Positions 8,890 to 44,487 of a stretch of DNA of 49,528 nt are shown piece after piece. A program made the position numbers and the translations under genes. The notes below the pieces were generated by a model. It saw only the letters and a program-made list of their open reading frames with translations. It had not been told where the DNA came from and ran no database searches. Source of the stretch: Clostridia bacterium (GTDB lineage: Bacteria; Bacillota; Clostridia; TANB77; CAG-508); NCBI GenBank assembly GCA_017886645.1, contig JAGHJM010000012.1:1-49528 (forward strand). The letters are read 5' to 3'. Within the stretch, counting starts at the first letter, position 1, and each line of letters begins with the position of its first letter.

Positions 8890-10041
8890 ATGAAATTTAT
8901 TGAGGGAAACAAACCTTTGGGGTTATCTGACTTATTTCAATTTGGAATAGAATTAGAGGCTTTTAATGTACATACAGGTATTCCAACGAAAGATAAGCCT
9001 AGTTTATATATGTCAAAAGAAAGTAAAGAATTTTTAAAAGAGCGTAGATGGAAAAATGCAAATATATTTGAAGAAGACTTAGTAATGCATGGAGGAGCAG
9101 AATGTGTTTCTCCTATTTTGCATGATACAGAAGAAGATTGGCAAAATCTATCTGAAGTATGTGAACATATGAAAAAATTTCCAGGGAAACATGGAGATGA
9201 AGTTGTTGCAGATGACAAATGTGGTTGTCACATACATATTGATGCAAGATCTTTAACAGGTAGAAATATACAAGAAACAGAAGGTATTACAGGAAATTTT
9301 TTAAAACTATGGGCAGAAGGCGAAGAACTAGTATATAAAATGTGTAATGATGTAGGAAGTCCAATAAGAGCAGGAGCTTTAGAGAACAAACAAAAAGGAC
9401 TTACAAGATTAGTAATGAAATTACAACATATTAAAGCAATGGCAAGTCCTACAGGTAAAAAAATAAAAAGGGATATAGAAAGAGGAACTTTAAAAGTATC
9501 TCATAAGAGGCAAAGTTTTTTAAGAAAATTGATAACCAAAAATAAACTTGATCCAAGAAGATATTCTGGATTAAATTTAACAAACATAGGAAATCCAAAG
9601 AAAAATACCGTAGAATTTAGAATAGGAAATGGTTCATTAGATTCTAATGTTATAAAACAAAATGTATTCTTGTATTCATCATTAATACAGGCTGCAAGAA
9701 CAATGACTCTTGAACCAGAAAAAAATAAAAAGCAAGTTGATGAATTTTTTCAATCAGATGTAACAGAAGAGCAAAAAGCAGATGCTTTTTTAAACTTATT
9801 ATTTCAAGATGAGCAAGATAGAAAGATATATAAAGATAGATGGGAGTCTGTAAAAGATGCTCCTGTATTTACTAGAAATCAGAGTCAGTTTGCACAAACA
9901 TTTAAGAGAGATGAATTCAAGCAAATTGCCAAAAGAACCCCAGTAACAATGGTAAAAGATGCATTTTCAAGAATGAAGGAAATGGTAGTACAACAAAAAG
10001 ATACAAAAGAAAGGGAAGGTTATAATGGATTGGAATTATGA
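8890..10041 (+). CDS. putative amidoligase (Amidoligase_2 / GCS2-like COOH-NH2 ligase fold) with a ~120-aa C-terminal extension
   Basis: Ordered motifs as I recall them for Pfam PF12224: FGIELEAF (N-terminal E-x-E), GGAECVSPIL, CGCHIHIDA, and YSGLNLTNIG....NTVEFRIGNGSLD. RBS AAGGAGAA. Not verified by a search. Confidence 0.6.
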   Translation: MKFIEGNKPLGLSDLFQFGIELEAFNVHTGIPTKDKPSLYMSKESKEFLKERRWKNANIFEEDLVMHGGAECVSPILHDTEEDWQNLSEVCEHMKKFPGKHGDEVVADDKCGCHIHIDARSLTGRNIQETEGITGNFLKLWAEGEELVYKMCNDVGSPIRAGALENKQKGLTRLVMKLQHIKAMASPTGKKIKRDIERGTLKVSHKRQSFLRKLITKNKLDPRRYSGLNLTNIGNPKKNTVEFRIGNGSLDSNVIKQNVFLYSSLIQAARTMTLEPEKNKKQVDEFFQSDVTEEQKADAFLNLLFQDEQDRKIYKDRWESVKDAPVFTRNQSQFAQTFKRDEFKQIAKRTPVTMVKDAFSRMKEMVVQQKDTKEREGYNGLEL

Positions 10042-10956: not shown

Positions 10957-11427
10957 ATGAAAAATAAAAAAATTTTTATATTAATAGTTTTACTTTTGAT
11001 TATATTAATAGTTATATCATTTTTTATTCATTTATATATAATAGATAAAAATAGAATGGAAAATGGAGAAGAAGTAATGTTTAGCACATGGGGAAATAGC
11101 AATTATGTTGCAAATACTACATCACAATCTATTGCAATAGAATTTCAAACCGTAAATAGAGTATATACGGTAATTTCTAATTTAAATAATATGACAAATG
11201 AATCAGGAGAATACAATTATTATGTAATAGAACAATTTCAAATGGACAACCCAACAGTTATACGCTTAAATAAAAAACATGGAGAATTAAAGGAAAATAC
11301 TAATTATGAATTTGAACTATATGGAGCAAAAGAATTACTTGATGATACGAAAGATTTAAGTAATATATTTAATAGTTGTCAAATACTATCAATACAAGAA
11401 ACGGATAAAGTGGGATTAGATATATAA
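10957..11427 (+). CDS. small membrane-anchored protein, paralog 2
   Basis: RBS TGGAGGAA. Same architecture and conserved blocks as 10479..10919. Confidence 0.7.
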   Translation: MKNKKIFILIVLLLIILIVISFFIHLYIIDKNRMENGEEVMFSTWGNSNYVANTTSQSIAIEFQTVNRVYTVISNLNNMTNESGEYNYYVIEQFQMDNPTVIRLNKKHGELKENTNYEFELYGAKELLDDTKDLSNIFNSCQILSIQETDKVGLDI

Positions 11428-11433
11428 AATAGA

Positions 11434-11468
11434 AAAGAGCATGAATTTTCATTAATTTCATGCTCTTT
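11434..11468. terminator. bidirectional terminator between convergent genes
   Basis: 12-bp stem AAAGAGCATGAA / TTCATGCTCTTT, flanked by an A-run on the left and T-rich sequence on the right. Confidence 0.65.
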
Positions 11469-11472
11469 AGTT

Positions 11473-12720
11473 TTATCTTAATAAAGTTCCCCATTTTTTG
11501 TATACGTGACTAAACATATTAAAAATAGTGTTTTTTTCTGCAGATTCATTTGCAATAATATTAACTCTTGAAAGTTCCATACCATCTATTGTATATACAA
11601 TTTCACCAATTTTATCGCCTTTATTAATTGGTGCTTGAATAGTATCTGGAATATTTATAATTTGTTCTATATTACTATCATCACCTTTTTTCAAAATTGT
11701 TCCAATTGTATTTTCGTATACAACTTCTATACTATCTTTGGTACCCTTTTGAATGTCTACAGTTTTTACAACTTCATTTGCTTCTGCAAATTTTTTGTAT
11801 TCAAAATTATTAAAACCATAGTCTAAAAGCTTTTGAGCTTCTGAAAAACGGACTTTTGTAGAAGGAGCTTTCATAATTACAGCAATTAAAGATAAATCAC
11901 CCCTTGTTGCACTAGCAGACAAATTGTATAAAGCAACTGAAGTAGACCCTGTTTTTAAACCAGTAGCACCTTTATAATTTCTAATTAATTTATTAGTGTT
12001 AACTAATTCAGATTTACCATCTCGTAATGTATCCATCCATATAGTAGTATATTTTGTAATATCAGGATGCTTTAAAAGTAACTCTCTTGACATTAATGCA
12101 ATATCATATGCAGATGTTAAGTGTCCGTCTTCATCTATACCGTGGCAGTTTTTAAATGTAGTATCATTCATTCCTAGCTCTTTAGCTTTATTATTCATCT
12201 GCTCAACAAATGCTTCTTGACTTCCAGCCAAATATTCTGCCATAGCAACAGTACAGTCATTAGCAGATACAACACATATTGCTTTTAGCATTTCATCTAC
12301 AGTAAGTTCTTCTCTTACATCCAACCAAATTTGGGAGCCACCCATGGCTGCTGCAGTTTCTGTACAAGGTATTTTATCGGAATATGATAGTTTACCAGAG
12401 TCTATAGCCTCCATAATTAGTAAGAGGCTCATTACTTTAGTAACACTAGCAGGTCTTAATTTTTCATGCATGTTATGGTTATACAAAACTCTTCCAGTAG
12501 TTTGCTCAATTAAAACAGCTCCGCCTGATTCTAAATTTAAGTCTGTTGTATTTTCTATTTTTTCTTCATTAATGTTTGCATTTGTTTCAACGGTATTATT
12601 TAAAGGCTCTGATGTAGGAGACCATACATAAATTTCTGATGTTGCAAAACAGCTAGTGGTGATAAATATTAGTAATATTAGAAACAAACAAAGTACTGAT
12701 ATTATTTTTCTAAAGAACAT
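11473..12720 (-). CDS. D-alanyl-D-alanine carboxypeptidase (peptidase S11, PBP5 type)
   Basis: Signal/TM N-terminus, SxxK (ASVTKVM), SxN (VSANDC) and KTG (LKTGST) motifs, plus a PBP5-like C-terminal domain. RBS GGAGGG. Confidence 0.9.
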   Translation of the reverse strand: MFFRKIISVLCLFLILLIFITTSCFATSEIYVWSPTSEPLNNTVETNANINEEKIENTTDLNLESGGAVLIEQTTGRVLYNHNMHEKLRPASVTKVMSLLLIMEAIDSGKLSYSDKIPCTETAAAMGGSQIWLDVREELTVDEMLKAICVVSANDCTVAMAEYLAGSQEAFVEQMNNKAKELGMNDTTFKNCHGIDEDGHLTSAYDIALMSRELLLKHPDITKYTTIWMDTLRDGKSELVNTNKLIRNYKGATGLKTGSTSVALYNLSASATRGDLSLIAVIMKAPSTKVRFSEAQKLLDYGFNNFEYKKFAEANEVVKTVDIQKGTKDSIEVVYENTIGTILKKGDDSNIEQIINIPDTIQAPINKGDKIGEIVYTIDGMELSRVNIIANESAEKNTIFNMFSHVYKKWGTLLR

Positions 12721-14141: not shown

Positions 14142-14957
14142 ATGAAAAGAAAATGGATATTAATTTTATTGGTGATTATTTTAATATGTTTATTTATATG
14201 GTGGTTTAACACATTTACAATAAAAACAACAGTTACAGAGATTGTTAGCGATAAAATAAAAAATGAAATAAAAATAGTACAAATATCAGATTTACATGGT
14301 AGTACTTTTGGAAAAGATAATAATAAACTAATAAGAAAAATAGAAAAAGAAAATCCAGACTTTATTTGTGTAACAGGAGATATGTATACTGCAGGAGATG
14401 AAAAAGGAAAACAAGTAGCGAAGAATTTAATAGTTACTCTTGCAGAAAAATATGATGTTTATTTTGTTAATGGAGAACATGATAGTAGTGAAGAATTTAT
14501 GAATGAACTAAAAGCAAATAATGTGAAAGTTTTAGATTATAAAAAAGAAACAATAGAAATAAAAGATACAAAATTAAACTTATATGGAATAACTAATCAA
14601 TATTATTCTCCAACATTTGATTTAGCAAATGAATTTGAAATAAATAAAGATGAATATAATATTTTATTAGCACATATTTCAAATTTTTCGAAATTTGAAC
14701 AATTTGGAATAGATTTATCGTTATGCGGAGATACTCATGGAGGTCAGGTACGTTTACCTTTTATAGGGGCTGTTACCAATGACGGAATTTGGTTTCCAGA
14801 AATAAATGCAAGTGATACTGATGCAAAATATACTAAAGGCTTATATAAGGAAAATAATTCATATTTATTTATAACAAGCGGATTAGGTAATTATCCAATA
14901 CCTATAAGATTATTTAATAGACCGGAAATAGCTGTTATAAAACTTTTAGGTGAATGA
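14142..14957 (+). CDS. membrane-anchored calcineurin-like metallophosphoesterase
   Basis: N-terminal TM helix. Motifs VQISDLHG, TGDM, NGEHD and CGDTHGGQ. Confidence 0.85.
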   Translation: MKRKWILILLVIILICLFIWWFNTFTIKTTVTEIVSDKIKNEIKIVQISDLHGSTFGKDNNKLIRKIEKENPDFICVTGDMYTAGDEKGKQVAKNLIVTLAEKYDVYFVNGEHDSSEEFMNELKANNVKVLDYKKETIEIKDTKLNLYGITNQYYSPTFDLANEFEINKDEYNILLAHISNFSKFEQFGIDLSLCGDTHGGQVRLPFIGAVTNDGIWFPEINASDTDAKYTKGLYKENNSYLFITSGLGNYPIPIRLFNRPEIAVIKLLGE

Positions 14958-14962
14958 TGTGA

Positions 14963-14991
14963 TTGACTGATTTACATAAAAGTTGTATAAT
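14963..14991 (+). promoter_or_regulatory. near-consensus sigma-A promoter of cassette 1
   Basis: TTGACT (14963-14968), 17-nt spacer, TATAAT (14986-14991). Confidence 0.6.
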
Positions 14992-15020
14992 TGTTTTATC
15001 CGAGTTTAGGAGGGACATTT

Positions 15021-15332
15021 ATGACTGATCCTTTAGTAGTAAGAATTCCGTATTATCGTCAGGTTCCGGGATATATTCTGGAACAAGAAAGTTCGGGTTT
15101 CTGCAGGCTCGCAAAATACACCAGATCAGGTGACTATACCGTGATAGCACGGTATGTGATGCCATCAACAGAAGAAGAGCTTGACACGATTATCCACGAC
15201 ATACGCCGGAAACACTGGAAGAAGAGGCTGTTCGTTTCTGTACGGATCCTTTCCGCAGAAGAGCAGCAGGCACTAAAAGATGAAGAGGAATATCTTGAAC
15301 TTCTTCTTAAAGAAATGAGGGATGAAAAGTAA
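15021..15332 (+). CDS. hypothetical 103-aa protein of foreign composition
   Basis: AGGAGG (15008-15013) lies 7 nt before the ATG at 15021; the track's TTG at 14991 sits inside the -10 box. The ORF is rich in CGG, CCG, CGC, CTG and GTG codons, which I rarely see in flanking genes. No recognised motif. Confidence 0.7.
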   Translation: MTDPLVVRIPYYRQVPGYILEQESSGFCRLAKYTRSGDYTVIARYVMPSTEEELDTIIHDIRRKHWKKRLFVSVRILSAEEQQALKDEEEYLELLLKEMRDEK

Positions 15333-15338
15333 TGTTCC

Positions 15339-15376
15339 GGACTGGCGAGGCTTTGCCAAGCCAGTCCTATTTTTTT
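15339..15376 (+). terminator. GC-rich rho-independent terminator of cassette 1
   Basis: GGACTGGC..GGC ttt GCC..GCCAGTCC followed by TATTTTTTT. Confidence 0.8.
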
Positions 15377-15408
15377 ATAAATATAATTTTAATAACTATA
15401 TACTTTAT

Positions 15409-15449
15409 AAAACATATTGTGATATAATCACGATATGTTTTATTTTTTA
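15409..15449 (+). terminator. AT-rich terminator, probably the original terminator of the metallophosphoesterase gene
   Basis: 15-bp stem AAAACATATTGTGAT / ATCACGATATGTTTT (one G:U pair), 3-nt loop, ATTTTTT. Confidence 0.65.
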
Positions 15450-15488
15450 CAAAAGATGTTAATAAAAACGTGAAAGGAGAAATTAATA

Positions 15489-17090
15489 ATGAAAAAGAAA
15501 GTATGGTATATAGTAATTGGAGTATTAGTTATTGCAATTATAGTAGCTATAACATTATTTTTAGTGTTTAGAAATAATGAAAATAATAACAATGAAGAAG
15601 AATTAAGTTTAAATTCAGAATTGAATGGAATGGTAGCTGTTGCTAAAAGAATGGAAAATGATATATCTAAAATTGTTGTCTTAAAAGAGGATGGAACAAG
15701 AGTAGATATAACACAAAATAGTGCTACTGAATACGAAGCATTAGACTATTATAATGGAAAAATATATTTACAAAGAGGAAAAGATTTTTATAGTATTGAT
15801 CTAAGCCAAGGTGATGGAAACTACAAATTAGAAAAAGTATTAACTTTTAATATGGAAGAATCAGATCTTCCAAAAGATATGTATGTATATGATGGAAAAA
15901 TATATTTAAATAAAAATAAAAGCCAAATAATTGCCTATGATCTTGCAACAGGTGTTTCAAATACAATAACAGAAGAAACAGAATATACTGAATTTAAAAT
16001 GGATAAAGAAAATGGTTTAATATATTATTGTGAAGCAACACCAGAATATTCTTTAAAAGAATATAATATTAGCACAGGAGAAACAAAAATAATTGATACT
16101 AATGATAGTGAATTAGTAGGAGATAATGAATATTATTATCAAATAAATCTTTATGATGTTAGTCAAGATGGAAAAATATTATATAGCAAATATGAAAAAG
16201 AAGGGAATGAAAGACCTTTAAAATATTACTTATATGATACAAATACCGGAGAAAAGGAAGAAATAGAAGGATTCCAGAGTGGAACTATTTCAGATGGTAA
16301 ACTATATTATTGTGCAAGCATGGAAAATGAACCAATGTACCCAGATTATAATTTAAGAGTTTATGAAAATGGAACAGTAAAAGAAATTACAGAGGCACAA
16401 GAAAATGATTATATGTATTTTTTTGATTTAGGAAATGGAAAAATTCAAGCTGTTATGACATGGGGACAAGATACTTCAACAAGTGGAGAACAAGCATATT
16501 TAATAGATAAAGAAACTTTACAAATAGAAGAAACAAGGGATAAATATGTATTAGTGCATGTTATTCAAAATGCAGATAATAAAGTAAGTTCATCAAATAC
16601 TAATGTTCAAGATGATAATGTATTAAGTAACAATACATCTAATAATACAGACACTAATGAAGAAGAAACAATTATTACATCACAAATAGCAATGCAAATT
16701 ATAGGAAAAAAATGGGGAACAGAAGTACCAAATACAGATTCAGCAGAAGATGGTTACAGTATAATTGGTGGCTATAGTAATATAAAAGTAAAAGATTTAA
16801 ATGGATTAGAATATTATGTTTTTCCATACTATGCTGTATCATCAGATGGACTAAATAGAAGTTATGTGCAAACTATTTTTATATCTATAGATGGAAAAAA
16901 GTATAAAATTAGTACTAATAGTGAAAATTTGAAAGATGGAGAAATAATAACAGATTTTAATGAAGAAGGAGATACAGAAGTAGATATTGAAGAACTTGAA
17001 AGCTATGAAAATACTGATGACTCTGAAAATATAGAAAATTTGGAAGATATAGAAAATGATGTAATCTTAGAAGAAAATGAAGAAATATAA
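15489..17090 (+). CDS. membrane-anchored extracytoplasmic protein with repeated GKIY(L/Y) motifs (possible beta-propeller, DUF5050-like) and an acidic tail
   Basis: N-terminal TM helix. Recurrent YYNGKIYLQRG, VYDGKIYLNKN, DGKILYSK and DGKLYYCAS. The C-terminus is D/E/N-rich. The family guess is tentative. Confidence 0.5.
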   Translation: MKKKVWYIVIGVLVIAIIVAITLFLVFRNNENNNNEEELSLNSELNGMVAVAKRMENDISKIVVLKEDGTRVDITQNSATEYEALDYYNGKIYLQRGKDFYSIDLSQGDGNYKLEKVLTFNMEESDLPKDMYVYDGKIYLNKNKSQIIAYDLATGVSNTITEETEYTEFKMDKENGLIYYCEATPEYSLKEYNISTGETKIIDTNDSELVGDNEYYYQINLYDVSQDGKILYSKYEKEGNERPLKYYLYDTNTGEKEEIEGFQSGTISDGKLYYCASMENEPMYPDYNLRVYENGTVKEITEAQENDYMYFFDLGNGKIQAVMTWGQDTSTSGEQAYLIDKETLQIEETRDKYVLVHVIQNADNKVSSSNTNVQDDNVLSNNTSNNTDTNEEETIITSQIAMQIIGKKWGTEVPNTDSAEDGYSIIGGYSNIKVKDLNGLEYYVFPYYAVSSDGLNRSYVQTIFISIDGKKYKISTNSENLKDGEIITDFNEEGDTEVDIEELESYENTDDSENIENLEDIENDVILEENEEI

Positions 17091-17133: not shown

Positions 17134-18228
17134 ATGGGAACAAATAAGTTTGAAAAAATAAATATATTAATAAATAATTTAATAAAAAACATAAAATATG
17201 TAATAAAGTCAATACCAATAGGAACTAAAATATTACTTGCTATTATATTAATTATTATAATTGTATTAGTATCAATTTCAATAATTATAAAAACAGAAAA
17301 TAGACAGAAATATGAAATTTATAGTGGAGCAAATTTAGATGAAAATAAGTATCCAGGGTATAAGGAATTAATAGATAACTTACTAGCAAGTCATCCAAAT
17401 TGGACATTTACATTATTTTATACAAGACTTGACTGGAATGAAGTAATTGCAAATGAAGGACATTCTGACTCAAGAACTAATCCTTTAAATTTAATTCCAG
17501 ATTCTTCTGAATATCCAGAGGATTGGAGATGTGAAATAGATAAAGACAAAAGATTTGATAATGGAACATGGCTTTGTACTTCAAATAAAGCTATAAGCTA
17601 TATAATGGATCCAAGAAATATTTTAAATGAGGACAATATATTTCAATTCGCAGAATTAAAGTATACAGAAGGAGCTCAAACTGTAGAAGGAATAAAATCA
17701 CTTACAGAAGATTCATTTTTAGAGGGAGATAGCATTGCAGAAGCATTAATACAAGCGGGAAAGAACGCAAATTTAGATCCATATTTTATTACATCTAGAC
17801 TAATACAAGAGCAAGGAAGAAGTGGTACAGTTTTATCTAGAGGCTATGAATATAATGGTATAACAGTATATAATCCATTTAATATAAATGCAACAGGAAA
17901 CTCGAGAGAAGAAATTTTACAAAATGCAGCTATGTATGCATATGAACAAGGATGGGACTCAATGGAAAAGGCATTAACTGGAGGAGTTGATTTTGTAAAA
18001 ACAGGTTATATAGATGTTGGACAAAACACATTATATTTACAAAAATTTGATGTTGTAAATCAAGATGGAGAATTATATTCACATCAATATATGCAAAATT
18101 TATTGGCATCTAGATCAGAAGCAAGTAATATGAAGGCAATATATGAGGCATCAAATACATTAGACTCAAAGTTGAATTTTATAATACCTTTATATGAAAA
18201 CATGCCAGAAGAAGTTTCAGGATATTAA
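17134..18228 (+). CDS. membrane-anchored peptidoglycan hydrolase, glucosaminidase (mannosyl-glycoprotein endo-beta-N-acetylglucosaminidase) family
   Basis: TM helix near the N-terminus. LDPYFITSRLIQEQGR...YNPFNI resembles the glucosaminidase-domain catalytic region. Confidence 0.55.
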   Translation: MGTNKFEKINILINNLIKNIKYVIKSIPIGTKILLAIILIIIIVLVSISIIIKTENRQKYEIYSGANLDENKYPGYKELIDNLLASHPNWTFTLFYTRLDWNEVIANEGHSDSRTNPLNLIPDSSEYPEDWRCEIDKDKRFDNGTWLCTSNKAISYIMDPRNILNEDNIFQFAELKYTEGAQTVEGIKSLTEDSFLEGDSIAEALIQAGKNANLDPYFITSRLIQEQGRSGTVLSRGYEYNGITVYNPFNINATGNSREEILQNAAMYAYEQGWDSMEKALTGGVDFVKTGYIDVGQNTLYLQKFDVVNQDGELYSHQYMQNLLASRSEASNMKAIYEASNTLDSKLNFIIPLYENMPEEVSGY

Positions 18229-43032: not shown

Positions 43033-43700
43033 ATGAAGGTATTAATAATAGAAGATGATAGGATATTATCAGATACAATAAAACAATGCATAATTAAGTT
43101 ATATGATATTAATCAGGCCTATGATGGTTATAACGGTTATATAATGGCAAAAGAGGCTATATATGATATAATAATACTAGATTTGATGCTACCTGAAATG
43201 TCAGGATATGAAGTATTAAAAAAATTACGTGATAATAAAATATATACTCCTATTTTAATACTTACAGCTAAAGATGGTGTGCAAGATAAAATAAAGGGAT
43301 TTAATTATGGGGCAGATGACTATTTAGTAAAACCATTTGAAAGGGAAGAATTAATTGCAAGGTTAGCGCTATAATTAGAAGAACAAATGGCAATTATACT
43401 ATAAATATACTAGAATTTAAAGACATGAAGCTTGACTTAAATAGTAGAAAAACTTATATAAAAGATGAAGAAATTAATTTACAGGGAAAACAGTTTGATA
43501 TATTAGAGTTTTTAATAAACTCCAAAAATACAATAATAACAAAAGAGCAAATATTTGATAGAATTTGGGGATTTAATTTTGACACAACTGCAAACGTAGT
43601 TGAAGTATATGCAAGCGGATTAAGAAAAACATTAAAAAAATATGGTTATGATAAATATATAAAGACCATAAGAGGAGTAGGCTACATGCTTTCAGATTAA
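43033..43700 (+). pseudogene. OmpR-family response regulator, frameshifted between the receiver and winged-helix domains
   Basis: The receiver domain (VLIIEDD..., DLMLPEMSGYEVL, LTAKD) ends ...ELIARLAL* at 43374. A different frame continues AIIRRTNGNYTINILEFKDMKLDLNSRK... into a Trans_reg_C domain ending at 43700. This is consistent with a 1-nt loss near 43366. Confidence 0.8.
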
Positions 43701-43711
43701 AAGGAGTTACA

Positions 43712-44076
43712 ATGAATGAACAAAAAGAAATGAAAAAGCAATTAATATAGATAGAAACAAAATTACGGAGTTAATGGTAATATTATTAGATAATGCTATA
43801 AAATACACAGCAAAAGGTGACACTATTACAATTAAAACATATCAGAAAGAAGGAAAATGTAATATAGAAGTACAAGATACAGGAATAGGTATTAGTGATG
43901 AAGGACTAAAGGAAGTATTTAATAGATTTTATAGGGAAGATAAAGCACGTTCAAGAGCAACAGGAGGTACAGGATTAGGTTTGTCTATAGCTAGTACTAT
44001 AGTATTGAGTCACAAAGGAACTATAAAAGCAATACACAATAAACCAAAAGGAACAATTATTTTGGTAAAAATATAA
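43712..44076 (+). pseudogene. histidine kinase remnant: start codon region plus the HATPase_c tail only
   Basis: An AAGGAG RBS precedes a 12-codon stub (MNEQKEMKKQLI*). A different frame is open from 43720 and encodes only the N-box to G2-box region (LLDNAIKYT, DTGIGI, FNRFYRED, GGTGLGLSI). There is no TM, HAMP or H-box region. Confidence 0.75.
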
Positions 44077-44080
44077 ATAA

Positions 44081-44108
44081 AAGAGGGCACCAATTATGGT
44101 GCCTTCTT
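44081..44108 (-). terminator. GC-rich hairpin terminator of cassette 2
   Basis: 11-bp stem AAGAGGGCACC / GGTGCCTTCTT (one G:U pair) with a 6-nt loop. The ORF's stop codon lies in the loop. T-rich sequence follows on the - strand. Confidence 0.6.
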
Positions 44109-44408
44109 GATACACAACTCCTTTCTGTGATTTATGCATAGATACAATTTTTCGTAGTTCTCGGTCCCAAGAAGCATGGGGATAGTGTTATAAAGATTCT
44201 TCGAAAGAATAAAACGATTTTTTTTGTCGTCCACATGGACTTCGCCGATGAACACGGCAGAGTCATCATATTTGCTTTTCGAAGAAAAAGTGATGCTCCG
44301 CTTTCCACCGTCAAAGAATACCATAAGATCCCGATTCTCGGGAAGGTCCTCCATAGCTTTGGCTAACTCCTTGGGAATTGTTACACGCCGTTGAGACAAA
44401 AGTTTCAT
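44094..44408 (-). CDS. SpoVT/AbrB-domain (MazE-like looped-hinge-helix) protein of foreign composition
   Basis: MKLLSQRRVTIPKELAKAM is a typical AbrB/MazE N-terminal DNA-binding motif. I prefer the ATG at 44408, downstream of GGAGGTG, to the GTG at 44420, which lies inside the RBS. Confidence 0.65.
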   Translation of the reverse strand: MKLLSQRRVTIPKELAKAMEDLPENRDLMVFFDGGKRSITFSSKSKYDDSAVFIGEVHVDDKKNRFILSKNLYNTIPMLLGTENYEKLYLCINHRKELCIKKAP

Positions 44409-44458: not shown

Positions 44459-44487
44459 ATTATACCAAAAAAATGTAAAAATAGCAA
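44459..44487 (-). promoter_or_regulatory. extended -10 promoter of cassette 2
   Basis: On the - strand: TTGCTA (44487-44482), 17-nt spacer, TG-G-TATAAT (hexamer 44464-44459). Confidence 0.5.

Follow-up and report, generated by a model that had tools for sequence, protein, structure and literature searches.

Introduction

Phage morons, in the concept of Juhala and Hendrix, are autonomous units of promoter, gene and terminator that have a deviant composition and lie between prophage genes. Horizontally acquired bacterial ORFans, or "genomic islets," undergo amelioration, as set out by Lawrence and Ochman and by Daubin and Ochman, and typical bacterial ORFans are more AT-rich than their host. 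An integron cassette consists of a promoterless open reading frame (ORF) and an attC site and lies next to an integrase and attI. Here we analyze a GC-rich gene of 103 codons, hereafter called X, in a stretch of 49,528 nucleotides (nt) from a Clostridia bacterium (JAGHJM010000012.1; the window). A preliminary description, made from the letters of the window, had taken X for a foreign-GC single-gene cassette that was inserted in the manner of a moron between a metallophosphoesterase gene (MPE) and its original terminator. The deviant unit itself held up in our analysis, and foreign origin is still the best reading of its composition, but the recency and the insertion site were not supported.

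Further precedents concern codons and RNA. Translation can be gated by rare codons, as in the TTA-containing genes of Streptomyces with their bldA tRNA-Leu(UAA), and CGG is an unassigned codon in Mycoplasma capricolum. Dual-function mRNAs are known of the RNAIII/hld and SR1/SR1P type, and GC-rich islands in AT-rich genomes are often structured non-coding RNA genes. We assign a probability of about 60% to the reading that X is an old, horizontally derived orphan gene that was fixed downstream of rpmE before the lineages compared here split, was inherited vertically under purifying selection, and was only later flanked by newcomers.

X is a GC-rich single-gene unit in a core region of an AT-rich chromosome

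The locus in the window, W, was compared with the other X-bearing loci, namely, L001 and L098 to L100 from the same species, the pair L002/L097, and the pair L004/L083, of which L004 is MGYG-HGUT-04539 from an uncultured Clostridium sp. The mean G+C content of the window is 26.9%, while that of the block from 15048 to 15367 is 46.6%. The richest of all 312-nt stretches in the window (standard deviation, 4.3) is 15056 to 15367, with 46.8%, and the 43.3% of the X ORF is matched by only 0.23% of such stretches. The switch in composition is abrupt at both ends of the block, and the earlier hand counts proved exact (27, 29, and 29 G+C per 60 nt in the lines from 15061 to 15240, and 14 of 60 in 15421 to 15480).

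For codon statistics, the 45 window ORFs of at least 100 amino acids (about 14,000 codons) served as the host set, and a codon was defined as rare when it made up less than 10% of its synonymous family in the host. G+C at third codon positions (GC3) is 0.41 in X and 0.07 to 0.21 in the 45 host ORFs (host value, about 13%), and G+C at first codon positions (GC1) is the highest in the window. Rare codons account for 21% of X, compared with a host mean of 4.1% and a host maximum of 7.5%. An index resembling the codon adaptation index is 0.28 for X, compared with a host minimum of 0.61, and the codon CGG, used once in the entire host set, appears three times in X. These values bear out the earlier remark that the ORF uses codons rare in the flanking genes. 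The preliminary description had allowed that the bias might be that of highly expressed genes; recA, rpmE, and other highly expressed host genes, however, have a low GC3, unlike X.

X has the layout of an autonomous one-gene unit of promoter, ORF, and terminator on the forward strand, with promoter and terminator activity predicted from sequence, and the coordinates first proposed for these parts were confirmed. A sigma-A-type promoter, TTGACT-17-TATAAT, occupies 14963 to 14991 (11/12 in a consensus scan), and transcription would start near 14998. The 5' leader (14998 to 15020) carries a Shine-Dalgarno sequence, AGGAGG (15008 to 15013), 7 nt before the ATG, and the ORF extends from this ATG at 15021 to the TAA at 15330 to 15332. 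A GC hairpin with 13-nt arms (15339 to 15367), followed by a T-run, makes up the putative intrinsic terminator (15339 to 15376). Because promoter-like hexamer pairs are no commoner in the region than in shuffled sequence (32 found, 30.9 expected), we base the promoter call on conservation: the -35 TTGAC, the -10 TAnAAT, and the 17-nt spacing are kept in L001, L002, and L004, and the leader string TTAGGAGGGACATTTATG is invariant across the four aligned orthologous loci. The initiation region is unstructured (z = +0.68). The terminator hairpin folds at -21.3 kcal/mol (z = -5.2), and folding energies for the equivalent hairpins are -18.9 kcal/mol in L002 and -18.2 kcal/mol in L004, with pairing kept by compensatory changes.

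Upstream of X lies MPE (14142 to 14957, forward strand; Pfam PF00149), which has a GC3 of 0.10 and thus a host-like composition. Its stop codon (14955 to 14957) ends only five bases before the -35 box of X, with no terminator in between, so that MPE lacks a terminator of its own; the X terminator would consequently also have to end transcripts reading through from MPE. Downstream of X, on the same strand, are a second, AT-rich hairpin of 17 bp with a T-run (15407 to 15449; hairpin, 15407 to 15443), which folds at -17.5 kcal/mol (z = -7.8), and the gene for a 533-amino-acid membrane-anchored protein (p533; 15489 to 17090 in the ORF list), also host-like with a GC3 of 0.10. The other downstream gene used in our comparisons is p364. 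The genes around X belong to the core chromosome: an SBP gene, recA, recX, scpA, ytfJ, PBP5, vanW, rpmE, yebC, and the spoIIIA operon. We found no integrase or transposase gene within about 10 kb on either side of X, no tRNA gene in the 49.5-kb window and hence no tRNA target beside X, and no significant direct or inverted repeats flanking it. This agrees with the earlier account of a core setting without recombinase, terminal repeats, or target duplication.

Two possible foldings around the leader were noted in passing. The final 33 nt of the MPE coding sequence (CDS; 14923 to 14955) are 76% complementary to the X promoter and leader (14970 to 15002) and could fold in MPE read-through transcripts, affecting the Shine-Dalgarno sequence of X; in such AT-rich DNA, this may be chance. 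In addition, RNAalifold pairs GGGACA (15012 to 15017, the 3' part of the Shine-Dalgarno region) with UGUUCC (15333 to 15338), which lies right after the stop codon and beside the terminator stem. The partner is UGUCUU in L002 and L004, and pairing is kept in L001, L002, L004, and W by G-C/G-U changes only. Such pairing of the 5' and 3' ends could mask the Shine-Dalgarno sequence, but it comprises only 6 bp and may likewise be fortuitous.

X encodes an orphan protein under purifying selection

X is a true coding sequence, and its protein is under purifying selection. Between W and L002, 30, 23, and 67 differences fall at first, second, and third codon positions, respectively; the ratio of nonsynonymous to synonymous divergence (dN/dS) is not computable for this pair, as the synonymous sites are saturated. 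The corresponding numbers are 11, 13, and 37 for L002 versus L004, with a dN/dS of 0.13, and 4, 4, and 8 for W versus L001, with a dN/dS of 0.27. Despite the saturation of synonymous sites, the ORF is intact and its Shine-Dalgarno sequence and ATG are conserved in all lineages.

The product is an orphan soluble protein. Among 5.8 billion clusters searched by k-mer and HMMER, only P0001 (94% identity) and P0002 (64%) were retrieved, and from 1.84 billion representatives, a HMMER profile scan recovered only the cluster of X itself and two repeat proteins, P0003 and P0004, which we rejected as spurious low-complexity repeat artifacts. The family consists of three 90%-identity clusters (7, 3, and 2 members) that all fall into one 50%-identity cluster, the only one among about 15 billion proteins, and it is always encoded at the same locus. 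X had no significant match in Pfam, NCBIfam, PHROG, or PADLOC (the sole PHROG match had an E value of 0.02), and none was found among plasmids and phages by blastn and tblastn, including INPHARED, or in a scan of IMG/VR. Degenerate peptide patterns retrieved no X from GTDB genomes, but they were too strict and missed the X-bearing L004 as well; a scan of metagenomes retrieved only L083. The X block had no Rfam match at the gathering threshold or up to an E value of 10. The preliminary description had envisaged that sequence searches would reveal donor lineages and other insertion contexts; the searches brought up neither.

AlphaFold2, run on a three-sequence alignment, produced a model with a mean predicted local distance difference test score of 67, in which the order strand-strand-strand-helix-strand-helix ends in a long, charged C-terminal helix. 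Foldseek found no match to this model at an E value of ≤0.001 in PDB or BFVD, and a sequence-profile search of PDB was also negative. X thus represents a new, lineage-restricted family without structural relatives, consistent with the earlier statement that the product has no recognizable motif. From the model, we would guess that the protein is small and cytoplasmic, has an alpha/beta core, and serves in binding or regulation. A test for a toxin-antitoxin or defense role was negative: X is monocistronic, has no small partner ORF, and matches nothing in PADLOC or Pfam.

X occupies the same place in other lineages and diverges together with its host

In L002/L097 and L004/L083, the gene order is vanW-rpmE-X-p364, with no MPE between rpmE and X and no p533. 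The X proteins of these two pairs are 64% and 61% identical to that of W, respectively, and those of L002 and L004 are 79% identical to each other. For p364, the identities are 79% (W-L002), 81% (W-L004), and 91% (L002-L004). X evolves faster by a similar factor in both comparisons, the dN of X and p364 being 0.316 and 0.118 for W-L002 (ratio, 2.7) and 0.119 and 0.043 for L002-L004 (ratio, 2.8), and both genes yield the same tree, ((W, L001), (L002, L004)). The syntenic stretch shared by W and L004 is longer than 10 kb; it takes in the SBP gene, recA, rpmE, X, and p364 and includes 12 orthologue pairs with 53% to 96% identity. At the DNA level, the homology of W to the L002 and L004 loci sets in exactly with the -35 box and does not continue past the X terminator, and promoter, leader, and Shine-Dalgarno sequence are conserved better than synonymous sites.

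X is therefore syntenic across the three lineages and co-diverges with host genes, and the matched divergence points to vertical co-descent from an ancestor whose rpmE was already followed by X, so that its acquisition would predate the species split. X is present in every lineage with the rpmE...p364 locus (W, L001, L098 to L100, L002, L097, L004, and L083), and no empty site was found among them. The preliminary description had named, as an outcome that would speak against an inserted foreign gene, the same gene at this site in all relatives with a host-like composition. Half of this is what we see: every relative sharing the locus has X, but its composition is deviant throughout.

MPE and p533 appear to be the newcomers

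The nearest orthologues of MPE (72% to 75% identity), from three other species, all lie in a rubrerythrin-MPE-feoB context, and their 3' flanks show no similarity to the hairpin at 15407 to 15443. This hairpin occurs once in the window and otherwise only in contigs of the same species; it is absent from the loci of other species, including L002 and L004, which lack the whole p533-side segment in which it is located. We therefore rejected it as the terminator of MPE, and the proposal that X had been inserted between MPE and its original terminator is contradicted by X loci without MPE, by the 3' flanks of MPE orthologues, and by the restriction of the hairpin to one species. For p533, tblastn found no match in L002, L004, or other relatives, where X is directly followed by the p364 homologue. 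Since X stands at rpmE without MPE in two lineages and MPE is found elsewhere, X would be the resident and MPE the newcomer, and the most parsimonious ancestral order is rpmE-X-p364, to which MPE and p533 would have been added on either side in the lineage of the window. A rubrerythrin-feoB locus, which would show the relocation of MPE, was sought in the window and is not there.

The second hairpin might act as a back-up terminator, or its palindrome as an operator. It centers TGATATAAT, a perfect extended -10 element (TGaTATAAT), on its loop, about 60 nt upstream of p533, and could be an operator or promoter element for that gene instead of, or besides, a terminator. Separately, a stretch 3' of the MPE orthologue of a related species (L090, 6830 to 7000) has a promoter-like TTGACT...TATAAT followed by about 150 nt of GC-richer sequence with hairpins and no obvious ORF, and may be a small RNA or a leader.

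The junctions recur in independent assemblies, and strains differ by recombination

The exact 103-amino-acid product is encoded on 17 contigs. Six of these, from independent samples and assemblers (ENA ERZ26778541, ERZ17292903, ERZ16268051, ERZ24773462, and ERZ24773276 and Logan SRR27748169), were examined and have the same MPE-X-p533 junctions. The preliminary description had pointed to breaks at the junctions as the sign of a chimeric assembly; their recurrence in at least six independent assemblies excludes this.

Within the species of the window, X has two alleles, one in W and the other in L001 and L098 to L100. Between W and L098, 16 of 312 sites differ in the X CDS (5.1%) and 7 of 63 in the promoter and leader (11%). 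In the flanks, the difference is 0% to 0.5% for PBP5, vanW, rpmE, and the 5' part of MPE, 2.3% for the 3' end of MPE, 0.3% for p364, and 1.1% for p533. The diverged tract of about 560 nt begins near 14777, at the 3' end of MPE, and stops at 15339, the first base of the terminator stem. Comparable imported patches occur in PBP5 of L084 (a cluster of single-nucleotide polymorphisms at window positions 11521 to 12322) and in p364 of L087 (about 20% divergence at window positions 17790 to 18070), indicating frequent import of DNA from related species at the X locus. The diverged X tract is thus ordinary mosaicism by homologous recombination. Local hypermutation was considered and rejected, as diverged patches are also found in PBP5 and p364 and as X is identical in L004 and L083, whose p364 genes differ by 1.9%. 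Long-term balancing selection on the two X alleles may be an alternative to import by recombination.

The high GC3 of X has persisted while host synonymous sites were largely randomized

The GC3 of X orthologues is 0.39 to 0.47 in all lineages. The synonymous sites of X are saturated between W and L002 or L004 (proportion of synonymous differences, 0.83 to 0.89), and 15 to 17 of the 22 to 23 shared 4-fold degenerate sites differ. At the 631 host 4-fold sites, which have 7.7% GC, 44.8% differ, against 55.3% expected at saturation, and in a two-state GC/AT model, host third positions keep 16% of the ancestral GC-versus-AT signal between W and L004, which corresponds to about 84% randomization. 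Polarized synonymous changes in X looked balanced, but the outgroups are saturated, so this comparison has no power.

When the CDSs of five X orthologues were folded and compared with synonymous-codon shuffles, z-scores of -2.8, -1.6, -1.8, -2.2, and -1.9 were obtained; 30 host gene segments in the same test had a mean of -0.2 (standard deviation, 1.1), with one segment at -2.5, and other foreign-looking genes ranged from 0 to -4.0 (the latter in L076). RNAalifold on three diverged X CDSs gave a z-score of -2.2 against codon-column shuffles, compared with +0.4 to +0.7 for three p364 controls. The signals for extra structure in the X mRNA are therefore consistent but weak (z of about -2). Each orthologue contains two or three CGG codons, at differing positions. 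GC-ending codon positions are barely conserved between W and L002 or L004 (odds ratios, 3.0 and 1.2; not significant). A search for tRNA-Arg(CCG) in the window and the fetched DNA was uninformative, as these sequences contain no relevant tRNA genes.

Other GC-rich genes occur in the window and in relatives

A second GC-rich single-gene unit lies on the reverse strand of the window. Its ORF of 104 codons (44094 to 44408) has 41% GC, a GC3 of 0.50, and 27% rare codons, and it is accompanied by an extended -10 promoter (TGgTATAAT; near 44466 to 44440), a Shine-Dalgarno sequence, and a GC hairpin terminator (near 44080 to 44110). The protein is an orphan, with one cluster at 96% identity among the 5.8 billion clusters, and we found no similarity between this island and X. 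In PHROG, the protein weakly matches an antitoxin-like family, and its sequence includes the AbrB-like motif "VTIPKEL." The two-component system beside it looks broken: the response regulator is split (43033 to 43374 and 43425 to 43700), and only a 100-amino-acid C-terminal piece of the histidine kinase is left (43774 to 44076).

In L003, where the surrounding genome has 27% GC, a 192-amino-acid guanylate kinase (gmk)-like gene with 50% GC and a GC3 of 0.57 (11282 to 11860) lies directly downstream of the p364 homologue, and further GC-rich single genes were seen in the relatives L014, L053, and L076. This recurrence of GC-richer genes in the clade suggests repeated entry of foreign genes and supports a horizontal origin as the default for X. 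A GC-rich island immediately upstream of the p364 homologue in L022 (9416 to 9685) and L031 (about 9430 to 9730), the position that X has in L004, was rejected as a homologue of X. It is unrelated and non-coding and resembles a miniature inverted-repeat transposable element: its terminal inverted repeats are 61 nt long and 93% complementary, and the motif GGGGTCGGTCC recurs in it. Its long hairpin accounts for spurious matches to plant microRNA precursor models.

Discussion

As the G+C content and codon usage of X are foreign to a 27%-GC genome, horizontal transfer from a GC-richer donor is its most likely source. In the history that we propose, X would have entered from an unsampled donor of this kind. 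The transfer would be old: the uncultured, AT-rich gut Clostridia that carry X form at least three species-level lineages, whose common ancestor would already have had the gene downstream of rpmE. Vertical inheritance, ordinary recombination between strains, and purifying selection on the protein would have followed. In the lineage of the window, MPE upstream and the gene for the 533-amino-acid membrane protein downstream would have arrived later, and MPE, having no terminator of its own, would now read into that of X.

Several observations weigh against this history. Neutral decay at the host rate would require a GC3 of X of about 0.84 at the W-L004 split (bootstrap 95% confidence interval, 0.62 to 1.12), so that neutral amelioration would need a very GC-rich donor just before the split, which is at the edge of plausibility, and a force other than history may hold the composition of X. 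From the promoter through the leader to the ninth codon, the sequence is AT-rich and fits the host consensus, which is unexpected if the whole unit was imported from a GC-rich donor. Neither a donor nor a GC-rich homologue of X was found in any collection searched, and foreign origin is for this reason argued from composition. The distribution of X is established in three lineages, p364 lying in a different setting in about 76 other related loci that were fetched, and the sequence in which the genes arrived is deduced by parsimony from five loci. Selection might instead maintain the GC-rich, rare-codon composition, adding to an old foreign origin or replacing it. The mRNA could be stable and structured, being long-lived or acting also as RNA, or the very rare codons CGG, CGC, CTG, and CCG could gate translation through scarce tRNAs, the inverse of bldA/TTA control. 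A GC3 that stays at the same level everywhere despite saturated synonymous sites, a neutral ancestral estimate whose interval reaches above 1, the CGG codons of every orthologue, and the folding signals all fit such selection, as does the paradox that a strong promoter and Shine-Dalgarno sequence precede the worst codon usage in the window, which is odd for a simply expressed gene. The lower bound of 0.62 is attainable, however, and neutrality is not rejected; the structural z-scores are modest and are equaled by single host and foreign-looking genes, the positions of GC-ending codons are hardly kept, and only three sequences are effectively independent. We therefore regard selection on composition as unlikely, though it is the strongest competitor of an old transfer followed by vertical descent.

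Three other explanations are much less probable. A foreign cassette recently inserted in moron-like fashion between MPE and an original terminator at 15407 to 15449 would account for the promoter-gene-terminator layout with deviant G+C, for an MPE without its own terminator before X, and for two hairpin/T-run elements in tandem. We consider it very improbable, given that X occurs between rpmE and p364 in two other lineages without MPE, that X co-diverges with host genes, that MPE orthologues elsewhere have other neighbors and other 3' ends, that no second hairpin is seen where the p533 segment is missing, and that X has neither a prophage context nor a match in phage or plasmid records. A structured non-coding RNA gene with an incidental ORF is a still more remote prospect: such a gene would fit a GC island in a very AT-rich genome, the promoter and terminator around it, and a slight excess of predicted structure, but the substitutions are strongly 3-periodic with a dN/dS well below 1, the ORF and its start signals have outlasted synonymous saturation, and even permissive Rfam searches gave nothing. 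Least credible, to the point of being negligible, is an assembly chimera or contamination in which GC-rich reads were joined into an AT-rich contig. The abrupt change of composition at both ends of the block is what one would expect of it, but the same protein occurs on 17 contigs, the six examined come from independent samples and assemblers and share the same junctions, and diverged orthologues sit at the same locus in other species.

If an old horizontal origin is correct, X is a further example of foreign single genes with their own expression signals settling in core chromosomal regions of uncultured gut Clostridia. The locus also carries a caution for composition-based island calling, as an apparent insert can predate its host-like neighbors. 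Potentially weightier is the GC3 excess of about 30 points that has persisted while host synonymous sites were largely randomized. Should selection hold this GC3, X would offer a clean natural test case in which selection, working through mRNA structure or rare-codon gating, keeps synonymous sites from yielding to an AT mutation pressure that is among the strongest known, and the second island (44094 to 44408) would be another member of a codon-gated set.

Among the known systems, dual-function mRNAs resemble X in having a small ORF in a compact transcript with a modest excess of predicted and conserved structure; in X, however, this signal is weak (z of about -2), nothing points to a target or a second function, and no Rfam family matches. 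The likeness to bldA control and to the CGG codon of M. capricolum is an analogy: X is loaded with nearly unused codons (CGG, 3 of 103), in similar numbers in its orthologues, but unlike the bldA system it has no known regulatory link and no evidence of a dedicated or limiting tRNA. X differs from an integron cassette in having its own promoter, in that the palindromes downstream are terminator hairpins only, and in that no integrase is nearby. With ORFans, X shares its short length, narrow clade, lack of homologues beyond that clade, atypical codon usage, and a rate of evolution about 2.7 times that of a neighboring core gene, yet under purifying selection. It departs from them in being 16 to 20 points GC-richer than its host, where typical ORFans are AT-richer, and in that its deviation is still large even though the host's synonymous GC-versus-AT states are about 84% randomized. 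Unlike a recent island, X shows no presence/absence polymorphism among the lineages sharing its locus, and no mobility signatures, donor, or other genomic contexts were found for it. The closest likeness in layout is to the phage moron, since X is one gene with its own predicted promoter and intrinsic terminator, set tightly between two neighbors and sharply unlike both in composition (GC, 43% to 47% versus 27%; GC3, 0.41 versus 0.07 to 0.21). The comparison made in the preliminary description is apt for the autonomous, deviant unit but not for a recent event, in view of the co-divergence of X with its host and the lack of a phage context. In contrast to a moron, X does not lie in a prophage and matches nothing in PHROG, INPHARED, or IMG/VR; it is probably older than its neighbors MPE and p533 at the locus and has been inherited vertically across species.

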